From contig CP120453.1 of assembly GCA_034226945.1 (NCBI GenBank), positions 1,302,001-1,366,000 of the forward strand: a stretch of 64,000 bases of DNA, written 5' to 3'. This DNA is from Picochlorum sp. SENEW3 (taxonomy: Eukaryota). Shown piece after piece: positions 55,350-64,000 of this stretch. The notes under the pieces were generated by a model. It did not search any database and was not told where the DNA came from. It was given only the letters and a program-made list of their open reading frames with translations. The position numbers were made by a program, and so were the translations under genes. Numbering within the stretch: the first letter of the stretch is position 1; every line of letters begins with the position of its first letter.

Positions 55350-57592
55350 TTATGAATCAGTGCAGGTGTATTTGGAACTAGTCCGATGGAGGACGGATTC
55401 CAAGACTGGCGCTTCATGGACTGGCTTTTGACAGGTCTGGTTGGCACAGACCAAGGCAGTTGGGATGGTCTTTGTATTCCTTTCCACCATGCGGGCGATT
55501 CTTGGGTTTGTGTTAGTCCAAAAATCCATGGTATCCTTGTTGCCTGGATCAATCTGGATGATGGTCTTGTTTGGGATGGTCATGCTACAGGCAGTTGTGA
55601 CGAGGGCATCATAGTCTGGTTGGCCTGGTTGGCCAATCAGAATCACCTGTGTATGCGGAATTTGATTCTCATACGCTGCCATGCACATCTGTGGCATGGC
55701 CAAAGGTATCTGTTCTAGTCTGGAAGATACTGATTGGATCATGCCAGTGGCTCTGGAGGCGTATGTCTTATTGTCAGTGAGCGCTGACAGGCGGATGAGG
55801 TTGCTGGCGGCAATGGAACTTGCAGCTGGCTCTGCGCCATCGTAATCATCCTTGAGACGGAATTCTAGCGATCCTGATGATGCTGTGTCGGATTGATAAT
55901 ATCCTTTATTTGCAGTGTCCCAGAAAAGGCTGTCCATGGAATCCTGCAGATTGAGAGCAAGATGGAGATGCTTGACATTGCCTGTTGCTTCAAATAGACT
56001 GATGAGTCCGCAGATTGTCCAGCTGTAGTCGTCAGAGAATCCACGAATGGTGGGTTCTTTGGAGACAAAACTTCGATATAGAATGGTAGCATCCTGCTCT
56101 TGCCGCATCATGGTCTTTTGCATAAAGGCTGCAATGTTTTCTGCCTCTGCAAGGTACACCTGTCTGGGTGATACACCTCGCACTGGAAAGGAATACTCAA
56201 CGGGTGGGTCTTCAGACTCCAACACCACTCCTGCCAATGCAAATATGTGCATTGCCATGCCATTCCATGCAGATATAATTTTCTCATCACGATGCGGACG
56301 TGGTCGTTTGTTTCTTGCATCGTATAGTATCTTTCTCATAGTTGATAGTTCCTCATCCATTTGTCCCACACTGATGGCCCTTCTCTCTGCCAAATCTTCC
56401 ACAGAGACTGCTTGGTACAATACATTTGTTCCTATAAACTCTTGATGAGGATCAGAGAGCCTTGACCGAGTGCAATTTCCTTGACTCGTAATACCAAAGA
56501 ATGTTTTGCAGTCTTGGCGCATGTTGTGGCTCATCTCGTCACAGGCATCCACCTGGTCAGTTGTCCATGTATAAAAGGCGCCTTCTTTAGACGTCATTGT
56601 CGTTGTGCATAGACTATCTGCATCTTCTGCTGCAAAATATCCTCCATGGACGGGGCTTTTGAGACTCTCCATCATGTAATCTAAAATACCTCTGCAGATG
56701 GCGCTGTAGTAGATGTCCTTAGTGAGTTGGAATGCCATCAGGTAGGTCAGCGCAATCTGTGGCTGATCATACAGCATGATTTCAAAATGTGGTACGTGAT
56801 ATATTTCATCCACAGAATATCGATGAAATCCGCCACCGAGCTGATCTCGAAGTCCTCCTTGTGCCATCTTCTTCAGTGTGGACAGTGTTGCTTGCTGCAT
56901 CTCAGTAGCATCATCATTCCCAGGATTCCCAGAATGATGATGATGATGATGGCTGTGTGATGCCATGAAGAGCGATTGCATCTCACATGGCCTTGGAAAC
57001 TTTGGAGGTCCACCAAACCCTCCATGTTCTGCATCATACCGTTGCAGCAGCATTGCTGCACACGCCTCCAATGCACGCCGCCCTGCTGGTGCTCCATCAT
57101 GATTGTCATTGTCATTTGCCATCATCGCAACACCTTTCTGCAATTGCTGCATAATATCGTCTGCACTCGACTCCACATCACGCTGACGAGTCTCCCACAC
57201 CTCGGCAATCCGTGTAATCACAGTCAGAAACCCAGGCCTGCCAAACGAATCATCTGGTGGAAAGTACGAGCCAGCAAAAAATGGCTTCTTCTCTGGCGTC
57301 ATAAATACAGACATTGGCCATCCACCACCACCCTGTGTAGCTTGAACATATTTCATATAAAATGCATCCACATCTGGCCGCTCTTCCTTGTCAACCTTGA
57401 TGCAGACAAAATGTGAATTCAAAAATGCTGCAATATCCTCATTCTCAAAACTCTCTCTCGCCATCACATGACACCAATGACATGTCGAATACCCAACCGA
57501 TAAGAACACTGGTCTATTCAGCTCTTTCGCAGCCTTGAATGGCGCATCATCATCCTTCCAAGGAAACCAATGAATTGGATTTTGAGCATGCT
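55350..57592 (-). pseudogene. SPATA20/YyaL thioredoxin-like + alpha6 barrel protein, missing its 5' end
   Basis: HAQNPIHWFPW..PVFLSVGYSTCHWCHVM, KVDKEERPDVD, GGGGWPMS, PKFPRP, GGFHRYSVD; no ATG upstream, sequence switches to HSP101 at ~57592. Confidence 0.8.
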
Positions 57593-58282
57593 AGACCTTA
57601 TAGTGTAGTTCTGTTTGATGAGGTGGAAAAAGCCCATCCTGATGTGATGAATTTGCTGCTCGGTGTGCTTGACGATGGAAGGTTGACAGATTCAAAAGGT
57701 AGAACAGTATCATTTGCCAACACAATCATCGTCATGACCTCAAACTTGGGATCCAAGATTTTACTTGATGAAGGAAATAGTGCTTCAGCTAAAGAAGCTG
57801 TCCTTAGCGTGGTCCGTCAGAACTTTAGACCAGAGTTCTTGAATAGGCTGGATGAGATGGTGATTTTCGATCCTCTTGGACCAGAGCAGTTGAGAGAGGT
57901 TGCCCGACTGCAGACCATAGAGCTGAACCAACGGCTTGTAGAAAGATCAATCACTCTGTCTATGACAGATAAAGCTCTTGATTATGCTGCGAAAGAAAGT
58001 TATGATCATTTGTATGGAGCAAGACCTCTGCGCAGATGGCTGGAGCATAATATCATCACAGCGCTGTCCAGAATGATTATTAGCGGTGAGCTCCCTGATG
58101 ACTCGAAAGTTACTGTTGATAAGAATGAGAGCGGGTTGACTTTTTCGGTCAGGCCGGATGAGGAAGCAGCAGCAGCCAGAGCAGCCCTTGCAGGAGCTTA
58201 GTGTAAAAGGGCAAGGCTGGATAACATGATCAATAACACTGAATGGGATCAAGATGAAGATGACATGATGGACGATGAATAA
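57593..58282 (+). pseudogene. HSP101: 3' remnant of cytosolic HSP101/ClpB1 with in-frame TAG
   Basis: RPYSVVLFDEVEKAH, DDGRLTD, MTSNLG, FRPEFLNRLD, YGARPLRR; TAG at 58199-58201, then the acidic tail DQDEDDMMDDE-TAA. Confidence 0.85.
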
Positions 58283-58565
58283 ATTAATTGAAAGAATGTA
58301 ATTCAACATATTGATTATTTGTTTTCTTCAATTCAGGAGTGCTGTCACTTCCCCCAAACTCAAATGATGTTTGCTTTGACTGTTGCGTTTGGTGGCAGTG
58401 GTTTTGTTGGGAGCAAGCACCAAAATTAAAATTATTGTTACATCATATGCAAGTGGACTGAACATATATGAACTATATAGTTCGATCCATTGCAATCAAA
58501 ACATTGACATATATATGATGCATCATGGCATATGCCCGCATGGACTGGAAAGAGAAGAAGAGATC

Positions 58566-58862
58566 TCATTCAGTCCAACCACATCGCCTCTTGAATACTG
58601 TTCTTGTTTCCTCACTCAAACCCATGGCATCCATGAGTTCCTCCATTTCTTCATTTGTTCTTCTTCCCTTCTTGTATGCTCTCATCTCAGTGTTAATCCA
58701 CATCCCCAGATTGAACCTCCGTGGTCCATTCCCATCGCTGAGATCATACTCAGCATTCGTTTCTGCCCCGTTGATACGGGGAATTGCGCTGAAATCGACA
58801 TCATCATGATGCAGTCTCCTGCGCTGCCTGAGAGCTTGACGTTTCTCTTCACGACTGGCCAT
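58566..58862 (-). CDS. Small protein with helicase-associated (HA)-like motif
   Basis: NLGMWINTEMRAYKKGR..EELMDAMGL resembles the LGxWVxxQRxxYxxG helix of HA domains. Confidence 0.45.
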   Translation of the reverse strand: MASREEKRQALRQRRRLHHDDVDFSAIPRINGAETNAEYDLSDGNGPRRFNLGMWINTEMRAYKKGRRTNEEMEELMDAMGLSEETRTVFKRRCGWTE

Positions 58863-59720
58863 GGTTTCGTTTCGCACAGATGAAAAGGAAAAGCACTTGC
58901 TGCAATCAATCTTTCTTGGTATTCCTCTACATATTGAGAATATTATACATGTAAATTATCAGAAATCAGATGGAATACGCCGCGGAACGGTTGTGATAGA
59001 ATTCAGTCTGATCAAGATGTCGCTCGCAGTTCGATACGGTTGAAACCGTTTGTAGTGATAAAAACAGGCTCTAGCCAAATATATACACCAATATGTTATA
59101 TATATGTGATACTAATGACATACGATCGCACGTACACGAGTTTCGGTTGAAGGTTGACTTCCGCTGGGTTTGAATATTCTGCTCTCGATATGCTCCTCTG
59201 CTACTCTCGACGAGAAGAAAGGAGATGACGATAGACAGTTACTATTTTGAGAGAATTATTGTTTAATATATGAATTGGAGGCACGCATACTGCGTGGTAT
59301 TGTAGTCTTGTCCATGCTATTTGATCGATTCCCGAATAATGTGTCCTTCTGAACAAAGGCCAACACCTTGCATGACATTCATGCAGCAAATCAACACGAG
59401 CATCTATTACACCATCATCCACTCCAGAAGATGGTTTGTGTTTTATTTTACTATAATAATATCAATCATTTCATAGAGGCAATAATACCCTTTAAAATTA
59501 TATGTATAGAAGATAGCAATCAACTGCTTCCATAAGGATAGTCTGGTACGCATCTCTCTGGTTCTCGCGAAACTTCCCACAAGATGGGAAATGATGCAAT
59601 ATTCACAGCGTATTCTTTTGATTTTGAATAATATATTATGTTGATAATTAAACATGTATCCAATGCAGTGTATACTCGTTCGCTCGCACGAGCAAGTTTG
59701 CTATCGAGCAATCTTCAAAG

Positions 59721-60533
59721 ATGGGTCCTTCAAATGATCGAAACTCCCAGTCTACCCGTGAGAATCCTTTAGATGAGATACGTGGCTTCCGTTTCAGAGA
59801 ACAAGTAACGGGGAAAGTTTGTGGCACTGAGTCGGCTAGGAATTCTACCACACAGCCAGTGGTCAAAGTAGAATGTAGTGCTGATGCTACCAAAGCAGTG
59901 TACTTGCTCCAGAAAAGCATTAAACTATGGCCATTTGTGGTACTCAATCTTACATCCAGCGTCCCAATTTCACTAGAAGAGGCTAATAAAGCAGTCAGAG
60001 AGTCGGTTATGGAGGTGGATGCAAGTCTTATTGCTTGTTCAGACAGATTCAGAAAAAATGGACGGCAAAACGAGTTCACGTTTTTTGTGACTGACCCCAC
60101 TCGTCTCACAGAAATGTTGAGGGAGTTTTCCAATCTCAACCAAGGAGCCAAGGCCGCACTTGATTGCATGCGAACGCATTCAATCAAATTGATCCAAAAT
60201 GGAAAGCCAGATGAGAAGCAACAGGCATCCCTTCTTGTCCAGATCATGTCCTACATCCAATATGAAACTGCCTTTTGCAAACAAAAACTAAAGAGCAGGT
60301 CTGGATTTGGTAGTAAAAGCCTCAAAGATTTATTGAATAGAATTGCCTGTGGACAGGAGGAACTTCAAAACCAAATTCATCAGGCAGTACACGAGGCCCA
60401 TCGTACTCTTTTAGAAGCTTCTGGTGTCATTCAGAAGCAACAAAAGGAAAAAAGTGGAAAGAGACGAAAAATGGCTGAGCCTACAAGGGAGCAAGATGAG
60501 ATTACAACTCCATTTATTAAGTCTGAGGAATAG
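59721..60533 (+). CDS. Orphan hypothetical protein with C-terminal coiled coil and basic NLS-like motif
   Basis: 270-aa intronless ATG ORF; KSGKRRK. Confidence 0.55.
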   Translation: MGPSNDRNSQSTRENPLDEIRGFRFREQVTGKVCGTESARNSTTQPVVKVECSADATKAVYLLQKSIKLWPFVVLNLTSSVPISLEEANKAVRESVMEVDASLIACSDRFRKNGRQNEFTFFVTDPTRLTEMLREFSNLNQGAKAALDCMRTHSIKLIQNGKPDEKQQASLLVQIMSYIQYETAFCKQKLKSRSGFGSKSLKDLLNRIACGQEELQNQIHQAVHEAHRTLLEASGVIQKQQKEKSGKRRKMAEPTREQDEITTPFIKSEE

Positions 60534-61478
60534 TGTCACAAGAGTCAATGGACCTGCTACAAAGTCATCTATCGCTCGTGACGTGGGATTTTCTGCAAGA
60601 AAACAAAGAGATGGTGGTGATAGATTGCATGTGAGGTTCAAAGATGGTGAATCTCTACCCTATTGGGAGGCAACACACATAAAAACCAAAGCAGGCCATA
60701 TTGGATGATACAGAAGTGGTCTTAGCCCTAAAAGTTCCTGATTGAAACCTCTTCCAGATGATTATCACACAAGCGAGAAATCTCATTTCAAATTTGAAAC
60801 GTTCGCTTCTTCCAGAATGATCAAAGATATTTGCCAACAGATTTGGATGACAATCTCATCATGTATCTGTTGTCTTCTTTTTCCTCGCAGTTATTTGCTA
60901 CTCCATTCAATTATGTAAAGAATAAAATACAAACTTAACGGGGAAGAGCGGAGAAAAGCATCAGAATTCGCGGGGCTTTCTGACACTCTGCTCTCTAGCG
61001 AGGAGAGACGCCTCTATAGGGTCTCAATAACAAGTGTCAGAAAGCCCCGCGTGTGCAAATTGTCCTTTGGAAATATGTGCTGCAAAAGTTTTTGGTGATA
61101 TATTAGAGTCGCCACGAAAAGGGCGTGGCGACGAGGCCATGGCAACCATGCTGTTGCCACAGTGGCAAAGAACCACGTCGATATCATGGTTACGATTTCT
61201 GGTGCTATTTGACTGTGGACCATGTCGACCGAAATTTGGGAGACTGAATAAATGTGAGCAAGCGCAACGTGAGATCAGAGAAGATTCTGCATGTCTCGGT
61301 GGCCGGTCTCAATGGGCACAAGGAGGAAGACCAAGCATGAGGCGGTCTCGTGTGCCTTTGACACTGTTATCACATGCAGAAGATTTTGAACATGTTTTTA
61401 TTTTCAATGGTGTTGAAGGATGGCAACTGCCTTGCGAGTAGATCAAAGCAGTGCGATTGGGATCTTGGCAGCAACCCT

Positions 61479-61526
61479 GTCATTAGTTTTGTCATTAGTT
61501 TTGTCGTTAGTTTTGTCGTTAGTTTT
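61479..61526 (+). repeat. 12-bp minisatellite (GTCRTTAGTTTT)x4
   Basis: gtcattagtttt x2 followed by gtcgttagtttt x2. Confidence 0.93.
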
Positions 61527-61974
61527 GCCGCGTTTCTTATTTGAGGCCTATGAAGGATCATCAAAACGCGATATTTTGTATAGTATCGCTACAGCGGGTA
61601 TTGCGCAGTCAAATTGGATGTATTTAGTATTATTTTATGTTTGCAATCACCCTGAGGGTGAACGGATAAGCAGGTGAGTCCTGGTTGAATTGCTACGTCG
61701 CGAAACTGTCTTGTTTTCTTGATCATGTCTAAAAAGCACCTATCTTTCAATTGTATCACGCCGAATATGTGTATATGTGCAGTAATAGAGAATTGTACTG
61801 TACAAACAGCATTGCATGCTTGGGAAGCTCAAATAGTGCTACTGCAATAGTGCCCAGAGACATCGTGGAGAAAAGGTGCGTTTGATTGCTTGTGACGATT
61901 CTTGCGAATGTTGCAAAAGATATATAGATATATAATGTATAATCAATCAAATATGTGATGTGCAGCCTATCCAC

Positions 61975-64000
61975 ATGACAAGGAAAAGGAAGGCACCTTT
62001 ACAGGAGGCACCCGCGTGGTCCACTGTGATTCCAGACTCCCAGCCTTCAGATTTGGATGAGGAGAATATAGTGCAGAACGCTGGGTCACAAGTGGCCTCA
62101 GCAAAGCGACAGGAGAATTCGTCTCAGCAACCATTGAAAAGGAAGCCATCTGCCAAGCCCAAGAAGAAGGAGACAGCTCCTGTCCTTGGCTGTGGGCGCA
62201 TTAAAGACTTCTTCAAGCGACCCAGAGTCGCTTCCAATGCTCAAACATCTGCCATGGGGGCAGAGCCAGGTGTACTGGTAAGCAATCGCCGGCAGACCAG
62301 GCGCCGTGTGGGGACCAGCCATGGGTCACCATTTGGCACTGTGTCAACGACACAAGATGCTGTGCTTGTGGATCTCACCGATGTAGACACGGTTTCCATC
62401 ACCACTTTAGAGGAGCAAGGTATGTTGTTGTTATGATGTATGTTTTCGGTACATACATTGAGATGTGTATCTCTCTTGGCACATTCATTCACATACTATT
62501 GATGCTATTGTAGATGTAGTAGGCTCTGATTCGGCATCTGGTAGTAAGGATATTCACGCATCATCAGAGGGAAACACAACAGCATCCATTCAAGAGGCAT
62601 ATTTATGCACATTAAATAGCGAAAACAGAAGCATCATCGAGAAAAGTCTGAATGATCTCGATTATTTATCAGACTTTATTAGGCGTACCTGCTCTGGGAA
62701 AATAGACAATTTTAAAGACCGTCTCATCGCATGTTCGAGGAAGCTGAGACAAAGCGCTGCAGTCCAGAGACTGGTTGATGTGAATACCGTCATTTCAGCC
62801 AGTGATGCGTCAGGTGAGCTGTTTGCTTCAGCCGATGAAACCATCAAAATCCCTTTGATGGAGTATTACAAACTTCAAAAGGGATATCTCCAAAATCAAG
62901 AATATGTGGATTCGAAAGGCATTCCAGAGGTGGTCAAAATCACAAAGGAGATTTGTCTGGATGACGAGTTGCAGGAATTTTCAATGGCTTTGATTGCTCT
63001 ACTTGCTTCAGAGTATGAAAACGGCGTCGAGGGGCTCTATGATGCACTTGAGAGAGCAATCGAGCAAAAGGTAGGCAGTGAGCAAAGGACATTGGAAGAC
63101 ATTAGGCAATCTTTCACAAAGTGCATGGAAGATATTTTGCAACCCCATAATGGCCCTGGATGGAGAATCCGCCACTTCGAGGAGACTGAAGCCATTCCGT
63201 CAAAGTATGAACGCATCTTTCCCGAAACTATTCATCTGTATGAATTTGTTAAAGAGGGGCTGAAGATGAGTACAGAAAGGTTGCTCGGGGTGCTAGTATT
63301 TCCAGAGGCAATCAAGTTCTCCCGACAGTTGAACGCTACGGGGACGTATGCTAGTCATGTGCTCTTGCCTAGGCAATATAGGATAGATGGTGGTTTCCAA
63401 TGGCGCTATACGCTCCATCAAGACTTTTTTTTTGGTAGTGTGCCAACTGGAGATGATTCCCACGTGTTTGTGTCTACTGAGGGCCGGTGCATCAATTCAC
63501 AAGGTGACTCTTTGAGCATTTCCGTCAGCGGGAAATTGTGCCCGAAATTTTTGATTGCTGCTAAATCCAAAAAAGAAGAAGTACGCAAGCAGTTCAAAAT
63601 ATATCAAGTGGTAGGCATGGCAAAATATGAGTGGACTCCATCTCAATTCCTTGAGAAATGTGGGCCAGGGATGAGTACCGACCACCTCACCATCCAAGCA
63701 TCCTATAATCAACCTTCCCTTTTGAGGATTGCTGATGCAAAGCAACAGGCGAATAATAAACGACCACGCTCTCGGGAGACTTTTAGAGGACAAAGTGTGG
63801 AGGCTTGCTACACTCAATTCAAGCATCTGTCTACCGAGAGGCAGACCATTGCTCAGAGATGCAAGGACAGTTGCGAGGAGAATGGTTTGCCACTGGCGCG
63901 CCTGGAAAAAGATGGAGACAACTGGAAATTAGATGATCCGAATCCATCTGAAAAGTGGGTTGACGTTGTGAGATGCACAAATGTCCTTTTCTTTGAGGAG
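61975..64000 (+). CDS. Large spliced protein with NUMOD4/HNH endonuclease-like module, 3' end outside window
   Basis: Exon 61975-62419, intron 62420-62513 (GTATGT..TAG), then an uninterrupted frame to 64000 with VFVSTEGRCIN, KQFKIYQVVGMA and STDHL..YN..LLRIADAKQQANNK. Confidence 0.7.

Follow-up and report, generated by a model that had tools for sequence, protein, structure and literature searches.

The edge of a 64-kb window of Picochlorum sp. SENEW3 probably holds the start of a spliced nuclear gene whose relatives carry a phage-type HNH_3 nuclease module

Nucleases of the HNH_3, I-HmuI-like type are usually met in phages, in bacteria and in integrated viral elements. I-HmuI itself, from Bacillus phage SPO1 (PDB 1u3e), is described as a nickase that acts as a monomer, has a single HNH site and binds DNA through extended modules, and a NUMOD4-HNH_3-AP2 gene is placed in a polinton-like virus integrated in a Symbiodinium genome (PMC12220804). 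Here we analyse a stretch of 64,000 nucleotides (nt) of Picochlorum sp. SENEW3 (assembly GCA_034226945.1, contig CP120453.1, forward-strand positions 1,302,001 to 1,366,000), hereafter the window, numbered from its first letter. Its last 2.4 kb probably contain the promoter-proximal leader of a spliced nuclear gene together with its first 645 codons, beyond which the window ends; the product belongs to a very small family of proteins of ~900-1500 residues in microbial eukaryotes. Complete members of this family appear to comprise, in this order, a variable basic leader, an alpha/beta region of ~360 residues, a segment that we call module 1, a linker, a nuclease segment that we call module 2, and a long C-terminal extension.

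The family differs from the described systems in size, architecture and setting. I-HmuI has 174 residues and is encoded in a phage intron, whereas module 2 lies at about residues 500-650 of a nuclear protein of 900-1500 residues and has an insertion of ~60 residues between its N-terminal part and the finger; unlike I-HmuI, it is preceded by a novel region of 360 residues and by what is probably a dead copy of the module, and its core is situated outside the window. The HNH_3-AP2 endonucleases (that of Salmonella phage Kenya-K47, WCZ56841.1, here P0014, and those of loci L007-L017) have ~165 residues and neither a eukaryotic leader nor introns. Their N-terminal strands and HNH_3 domain are matched by module 2, and the same span is matched collinearly by module 1 (P 0.012-0.034), but AP2 is not detectable in the present family. 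The Symbiodinium viral gene and this family both place an I-HmuI-like HNH_3 domain in a protist nuclear genome; however, the former lies within a viral element and carries NUMOD4 and AP2, whereas the latter has neither by Pfam, no viral neighbours, and spliceosomal introns. Full-text literature searches, which mostly returned listings and abstracts, gave no description of such a family. The nuclease domain itself is known, and the new element would be very large intron-bearing nuclear proteins embedding one intact HNH_3 module. A conceptual parallel, for which no homology is claimed, is the yeast HO endonuclease: it derives from a homing endonuclease and is now encoded in the nucleus, to which the protein is targeted, but its origin is a LAGLIDADG intein and it is not an HNH protein.

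The frame on which the gene rests is open on the + strand from 62465, directly after a stop, to 64000, with 512 codons from its first GTG. It is listed only if open-ended open reading frames (ORFs) are allowed, and a preliminary description of this DNA was right that the ORF list had missed it because it runs off the window. Read from 62513 to the window end, the frame gives a stop-free translation of 496 residues (P0001), where that description had counted ~495 stop-free codons after an intron; the GC content of the window over this run is 46%, and the probability of such a run by chance, estimated at a stop frequency of 5%, is ~1e-11. An exhaustive phmmer search of 1.84e9 representative proteins retrieved six relatives of 324-1407 residues, with E values from 6.5e-90 to 2.2e-6, which align over residues 38-496 of P0001. 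The best of these, P0003, has 44% identity (P0001 38-496 against P0003 49-521), and the frame is regarded as coding because of this homology at E 6.5e-90. Four more members (P0009-P0012) were added by word-indexed searches; a word-indexed protein search with P0001 for proteins near its own length gave none among 7999 candidates. All the records of the relatives come from the source 'ena' and none is named. A metagenome scan added two family loci. L001 is a contig of 4581 nt with a single intronless ORF of 1497 codons, the full form of P0006. L002 is a eukaryotic contig of 25 kb with PAP-fibrillin, RGP, ESF1 and diacylglycerol kinase neighbours, in which the family copy (P0013, 8627-9853, 408 codons, 77% identical to P0010) meets a stop inside module 1, with no remnant found downstream of that stop. 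The window protein keeps 14 of the 14 invariant columns of the family. On sequence grounds it is placed in this unnamed eukaryotic family (P0003-P0013 and L001), with which it is homologous and collinear from the N-terminal region through module 1 and the linker to the beginning of module 2.

Two further features of the relatives were noticed. Residues 34-65 of the L001 protein are nearly identical to residues 1-32 of P0010 (MRLHDTSQVE.PDQHPLSDLEPRQKR.KSS), and elsewhere the two are ~34% identical, a pattern that suggests a leader shared between paralogues via conversion or exon exchange. Beyond module 2, in the C-terminal halves of P0003, P0005, P0006, P0009 and P0010, S.(G/S)T(V/L)..W(I/V) motifs recur and an acidic stretch is present, with no Pfam support for these halves; in the ESM Atlas the C-terminal half of P0009 gave only leads below 0.8, one of them a cluster with 19% NUMOD1 members (score 0.76), and P0001 gave no usable match.

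The nuclease identity of the family is carried by module 2. The Pfam HNH_3 family (PF13392, gathering score 24.8 bits) is passed by six of the seven distinct full-length relatives, the scores being 38.4 bits for P0003, 27.5 for P0005, 29.3 for P0006, 35.5 for P0009, 29.3 for P0010, 29.5 for P0011 and 29.1 for the L001 ORF; P0008, with 15.5 bits, falls under the cut-off. Searched against the PDB, the family profile retrieved I-HmuI (1u3e) at E 0.0054, aligning the active-site stretch VVDHingntgdNrlsNlrlvtsreN to VVDHKDGNKDNNLSTNLRWVTQKIN, with the Asp, the His and both Asn residues of I-HmuI in register. We take D74, H75, N83 and N96 of I-HmuI to be its catalytic and metal-site residues, which gives D-H followed by Asn at positions +9 and +22; all seven distinct full-length relatives keep D-H..N..N in module 2. 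Compared by hhalign with 12 bacterial and phage HNH_3(-AP2) proteins taken as the canonical set (P0014 and loci L007-L017), module 2 of the relatives gave a probability of 97% and P 5.8e-11 over 90 columns, and three control segments of the family gave P 0.6-0.82. A search for related loci that started from a single phage protein returned one close relative only, and a NUMOD4 search on two phage records yielded nothing of use. The segment following HNH in the relatives gave P 0.13 against the canonical AP2 part, and no Pfam AP2 was found. Judged by these profiles, module 2 of the relatives is a genuine HNH_3 domain.

In P0003 the HNH_3 match covers residues 613-650, and the window end is equivalent to its residue 521. 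The window gene presumably continues into module 2, whose core would lie ~90-130 codons (~270-400 nt) past base 64000. The preliminary description had proposed that the string PSEKWVDVV opens a repeat, which agrees with the alignment of EKWVDVV, at 63950, with the start of the relatives' module 2; it had also proposed a nuclease fused to a long novel N-terminal region, and the relatives do carry a phage-type, I-HmuI-like HNH_3 module after a long N-terminal region, as seen with Pfam and with profiles. The other strings that it had quoted (HVFVSTEGRCINS, KQFKIYQVVGMAKY, MSTDHLTIQASYNQPSLLRIADAKQQANNKR, MTRKRK and KRKPSAKPKKK) are likewise all present in the translations.

The gene can be laid out as follows:

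61614-61673, + strand: 5' leader exon, its start being a minimum, taken from a contig of RNA run X16 that has 56 loose letters before 61779
61674-61782, + strand: intron in the 5' untranslated region (UTR), GT..AG, 109 nt, with boundaries GTGAGT / GTGCAG, joined in RNA
61783-61875, + strand: second leader exon, spanned by the X16 contig over 61779-61873, with a predicted end
61876-61965, + strand: possible second 5' UTR intron, with a putative GT at 61876 (AAG/GTGCGT) and GTGCAG ending at 61965
61975-62419, + strand: coding exon 1, a disordered basic leader, from the translation and from RNA-library contigs over 62152-62360
62420-62513, + strand: putative coding-region intron, GT..AG, 94 nt, phase 1, predicted from the frame and the start of homology
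62514-64000, + strand: coding exon 2, open at the window end, with relatives at E 6.5e-90 to 2e-6
62576-63664, + strand: family-specific alpha/beta region, P0001 residues 22-384, modelled with AlphaFold2 (AF2), no recognised fold found
63404-63772, + strand: module 1, with a VFVSTEGRCIN hairpin, a QVVGMAKY helix and D-H at 63680-63685, from profile alignments
63773-63949, + strand: conserved linker, RQ.IA..CK...GLP..RLE, from the family alignment
63950-64000, + strand: start of module 2, 17 residues (EKWVDVVRCTNVLFFEE) aligned to E.W.VV...LFFE.E of the relatives, after which the window stops

Among public runs, 20 contain the stretch in full or in part, and six of these are RNA libraries; four runs were compared (three of RNA, from two studies, and an organism-labelled one of unknown kind). 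A spliced + strand leader exists just upstream of the ATG at 61975, because an X16 contig joins ~61673 to 61783: it links ...GATAAGCAG to TAATAGAG, the sole RNA-supported splice of the gene, and the 30 letters shown of its 56 loose ones are those of window positions 61640-61669. For the possible second leader intron (61876-61965) no RNA join was seen in these contigs. Exon 1 is partly covered by RNA-library contigs from two studies (62152-62360), and so is much of exon 2 (62533-63985).

Exon 1 is the start of a 149-codon frame (P0002) opened by the ATG at 61975, which begins MTRKRK... and includes KRKPSAKPKKK. Its basic runs (RKRK at 61981-61992, KRKPSAKPKKK at 62137-62169 and RRQTRRR at 62287-62307) resemble nuclear-localisation signals. 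The coding intron appears to be needed because the similarity to the relatives starts before the first in-frame Met of P0001, at residue 38-46, and no ATG occurs in the window sequence between the preceding stop and 62513. With a donor GT at 62420-62421 (CAAG/GTATGT) and an acceptor AG at 62512-62513, the two coding exons would join in frame (G + AT = Asp), and the visible coding sequence would run for 645 codons with no stop. We infer that 62420-62513 is spliced as a coding intron. The canonical intron of the preliminary description fares well in its GT..AG borders, its in-frame join and the need for it created by the start of homology; the RNA contigs, none of which bridges it, neither support nor refute the splice. 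That description was also correct to place an intron-bearing gene in nuclear DNA: the window is compact eukaryotic nuclear DNA, with genes for a dynamin, a BK channel, a CAAX protease, an aldehyde dehydrogenase and a core-2 branching enzyme, and the gene is regarded as nuclear because of these eukaryotic neighbours and of the GT..AG leader intron joined in the RNA contig.

Some sequence variants touch exon 1. A cluster of differences at 62194-62210, within a compared span of 62194-63945, changes GRIKDF to RGNRDS. One contig of run X1 skips 62208-62415 with one letter inserted (net 207 nt, in frame), and in another the first 17 letters, equal to 61966-61982, are followed directly by 62136, an in-frame skip of 153 nt; these contigs are length variants of the disordered exon 1. 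The idea of a PCNA-interacting peptide (PIP) box, based on GRIKDFF in the window and QGNIRSYF in L001, was dropped, as such a motif occurs in only three of eight leaders; it is also countered by the variant haplotype, which replaces five of the motif's residues.

For the N-terminal region, AF2 run with an alignment of 10 sequences gave predicted local distance difference test (pLDDT) values mostly of 70-90 over residues 22-384 of P0001. Foldseek searches of the PDB with the 496-residue model returned nothing at E<=0.001 (best E 0.055, template-modelling (TM) score ~0.1), and the same holds for BFVD (best E 0.017, TM ~0.1). A wide VIA-align search reached Z 4.0 at best (3.2 A, 72 aligned) and a second look Z 3.0. 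No HNH protein was listed in these fold searches, a weak test with a model of more than 400 residues whose motif part is of low confidence, and no Pfam family was found for the N-terminal region. For residues 22-384 of the predicted model, then, no recognised fold was found, and these searches are evidence neither of absence nor of a new fold.

Taken together, a working model can be proposed for complete members. The basic leader may carry the protein to the nucleus; module 2, an I-HmuI-type HNH_3 domain with a predicted beta-beta-alpha-metal fold and D-H..N..N intact, would nick or cut DNA through one metal-ion site, by analogy with I-HmuI; and the N-terminal region, a dead module 1 and the C-terminal extension might provide DNA or partner binding. 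If active, such proteins would be candidates for a domesticated nuclease that acts site-specifically in recombination, repair or defence, or for a nuclear selfish gene in ecologically important microalgae, and the pair of a dead and a live module would exemplify pseudo-enzyme partnering in nature. As regards annotation, this is a real, spliced gene that the window edge interrupts, and it is to the unseen part that the nuclease label applies.

Several observations weigh against the reading of this locus as a spliced member of a nuclease family. The catalytic module itself is nowhere visible in the window. In the four public runs no RNA contig bridges 62420-62513 and none covers 62393-62469, and exon 1 has no significant similarity to the N-termini of the relatives (best E 0.12). 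Three members are cut short before or inside module 2: P0004 (713 residues, ending at the D-H position of module 2), P0013 in L002, and P0007 (324 residues, possibly a fragment). Among the 40 listed of the 95 differences between the window and near-identical contigs (at least 92% identity, possibly from other strains or paralogues), 32 are non-synonymous and eight synonymous, a ratio of 32:8 that looks like weak constraint.

The remaining points of this kind concern module 1. Pfam searches of P0001, P0002 and C-terminal pieces gave nothing relevant even at E<=10, and an HNH-annotated PHROG family was matched in module 1 by none of 10 relatives scanned (four whole proteins and six module-1 stretches). 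Hhalign probabilities for module 1 are just 1-4% (0.9-3.6%). The position of the last metal-binding Asn, in I-HmuI numbering, is a Gln in module 1 of all members, and the structural Asn is a Gly in every relative and an Asn in the window. AF2 gives pLDDT below 50 over the motif residues 385-436 and draws them as helices, not as a hairpin.

We nevertheless lean slightly towards module 1 being, in sequence terms, a degenerate duplicate of the HNH_3 module. In hhalign comparisons it gave P 0.064 against module 2, 0.034 against the canonical HNH part and 0.012 against the canonical full length. The matches to canonical HNH_3 are collinear over 90-96 columns with D-H placed on D-H, and all three comparisons share one register, with P 0.012-0.064 against 0.28-0.89 for the controls. 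Column shuffles reached the score of module 1 in five of 150 cases for module 2, six of 150 for the HNH part and none of 150 for the full length, and reversed sequences gave background scores. The window copy keeps D-H and the Asn at +9, and has Gln at +22 and LL for NL. In the AF2 model the order of elements (hairpin 317-328, strands 342-349 and 356-360, helix 363-372) is like that of the canonical N-terminal part. PHROG HNH families match module 1 at sub-threshold E 0.05-0.2, the two top matches of the 203-residue C-terminal piece being phrog_3593 (E 0.052) and phrog_3377 (E 0.059), both HNH endonucleases.

A serious rival, which we consider quite possible, is that module 1 is unrelated to HNH and is simply the C-terminal part of the family-specific region, with its D-H and spacing resembling the nuclease by chance; the other parts of our reading would be unaffected. 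The empty Pfam result at E<=10, the absence of HNH PHROG matches in all 10 relatives and the hhalign probabilities of 0.9-3.6% would all be expected from such a segment, as would the five to six shuffles of 150 that reach its score in two of the three comparisons, the low-confidence helices (pLDDT <50, no hairpin) over DHLTIQAS and the absence of any HNH protein among the structures listed by the fold searches. However, three comparisons in the same collinear register, with D-H on D-H and beating all three controls, are harder to reconcile with chance, as are the failure of any of 150 shuffles to reach the full-length score and the fact that the two top PHROG matches of the window segment are both HNH endonuclease families. 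Two other searches were uninformative for this segment: phmmer of the C-terminal 203 residues against the PDB gave chance-level rows only (Ly49C, E 0.11), and a single-sequence fold of 63392-64000 had pLDDT 36.8 and was unusable.

Less probable, and in our view unlikely, is that the family, instead of being a domesticated host gene, represents a homing-endonuclease gene of the nucleus that is selfish and free-standing, or forms the core of a mobile element not yet described. Members are few and patchily distributed, a single metagenome assembly holds at least two diverged copies and a truncated one (L001, L002), the leaders of L001 and P0010 are near-identical over 30 residues in proteins otherwise ~34% identical, no neighbouring genes are common to the window and L002 (synteny of the window with L001 or L002 was not found), and catalytic residues are kept while polymorphism looks weakly constrained. 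Against it stand the spliceosomal introns and nuclear-type leader, the lack of integrase, transposase or capsid neighbours in the window and in L002, and the presence of one family copy only in the 64 kb; the preliminary description had also suggested counting genomic copies, and a second one is absent within the window. Of the core of a mobile element, another of its suggestions, no evidence in the form of repeats or extra copies was visible in the window, in a scan covering tandem repeats and not terminal or inverted ones, and the 3' end of the gene lies outside the window.

Nor did relatives in giant viruses or phages, which that description had envisaged, come to light: a scan of IMG/VR gave 33 pattern matches with none confirmed, tblastn of P0003 against 50,697 phage records gave four records at E ~8e-3, over module 2 only, and BFVD gave no match at E<=0.001. 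The truncated and diverged copies, the in-frame indels and the 32:8 changes are hints of a dynamic, possibly selfish family, none of them decisive. A stronger form of the idea, that these are members of an undescribed class of selfish nuclear elements in marine microalgae (free-standing HNH_3 genes with introns, a nuclear-targeting leader and a dead-plus-live tandem pair, still spreading, duplicating and decaying), is more doubtful still; if true, it would account for a distribution that is patchy, for copies that are truncated, for the leader common to paralogues and for the weakly constrained polymorphism.

It is similarly improbable that the copy in the window has been truncated or is decaying and, as an emerging pseudogene, has lost the sequence coding for the nuclease. 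Truncated relatives do exist (the L002 copy, with its stop in module 1 and no remnant, and P0004, which ends at the D-H of module 2), 32 of the 40 listed differences (of 95) are non-synonymous, and run X1 contains exon 1 variants with in-frame indels; but 645 visible codons free of stops, the full set of invariant family columns, and RNA-library contigs over both exons together with a spliced leader argue against it.

The weakest alternative, an active phage- or giant-virus-type NUMOD4-HNH homing endonuclease encoded in the window at 63430-63800, can draw on the motif order of the preliminary description, which is real, on the D-H and the Asn nine residues after the Asp kept in the window and on the PHROG HNH matches at E 0.05-0.2, but it is very improbable in view of the lack of Pfam HNH_3 or NUMOD4 matches, the Gln at the metal-binding Asn position with LL for NL, the low-confidence fold and the lack of viral relatives in IMG/VR, phage records and BFVD. 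It is, at most, just as improbable that module 1 holds an active site. The HNH domain that had been placed at 63670-63770 accordingly has to be withdrawn from that position, with no Pfam HNH_3 or NUMOD4, sub-threshold PHROG matches, none in 10 relatives and no confident fold; a profile match over this interval had been named beforehand as a test, and Pfam gave none. Nor is the NUMOD4 domain supported: NUMOD4 (PF07463) was matched neither in the window protein nor in the 10 relatives scanned (E<=1 or E<=10).

A few observations concern the surroundings of the gene. Upstream of it, at 61478-61527, lies a tandem repeat of 12 nt (TGTCATTAGTTT, 4.2 copies, 97% matches). The GC content over 58001-62000 is 0.41-0.42, against 0.44-0.51 elsewhere in the window, and this low-GC stretch includes an ORF of 270 codons (59721-60533) with no Pfam family. 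At 57539-58201, on the + strand, a 220-codon ORF with its own ATG corresponds to no more than the C-terminal end of a ClpB-type ATPase (AAA_2 positions 73-165 and ClpB_D2-small) and overlaps the 5' end of a DUF255/thioredoxin gene on the - strand (55350-57590); this ORF is a gene fragment or else a short gene of unusual kind.

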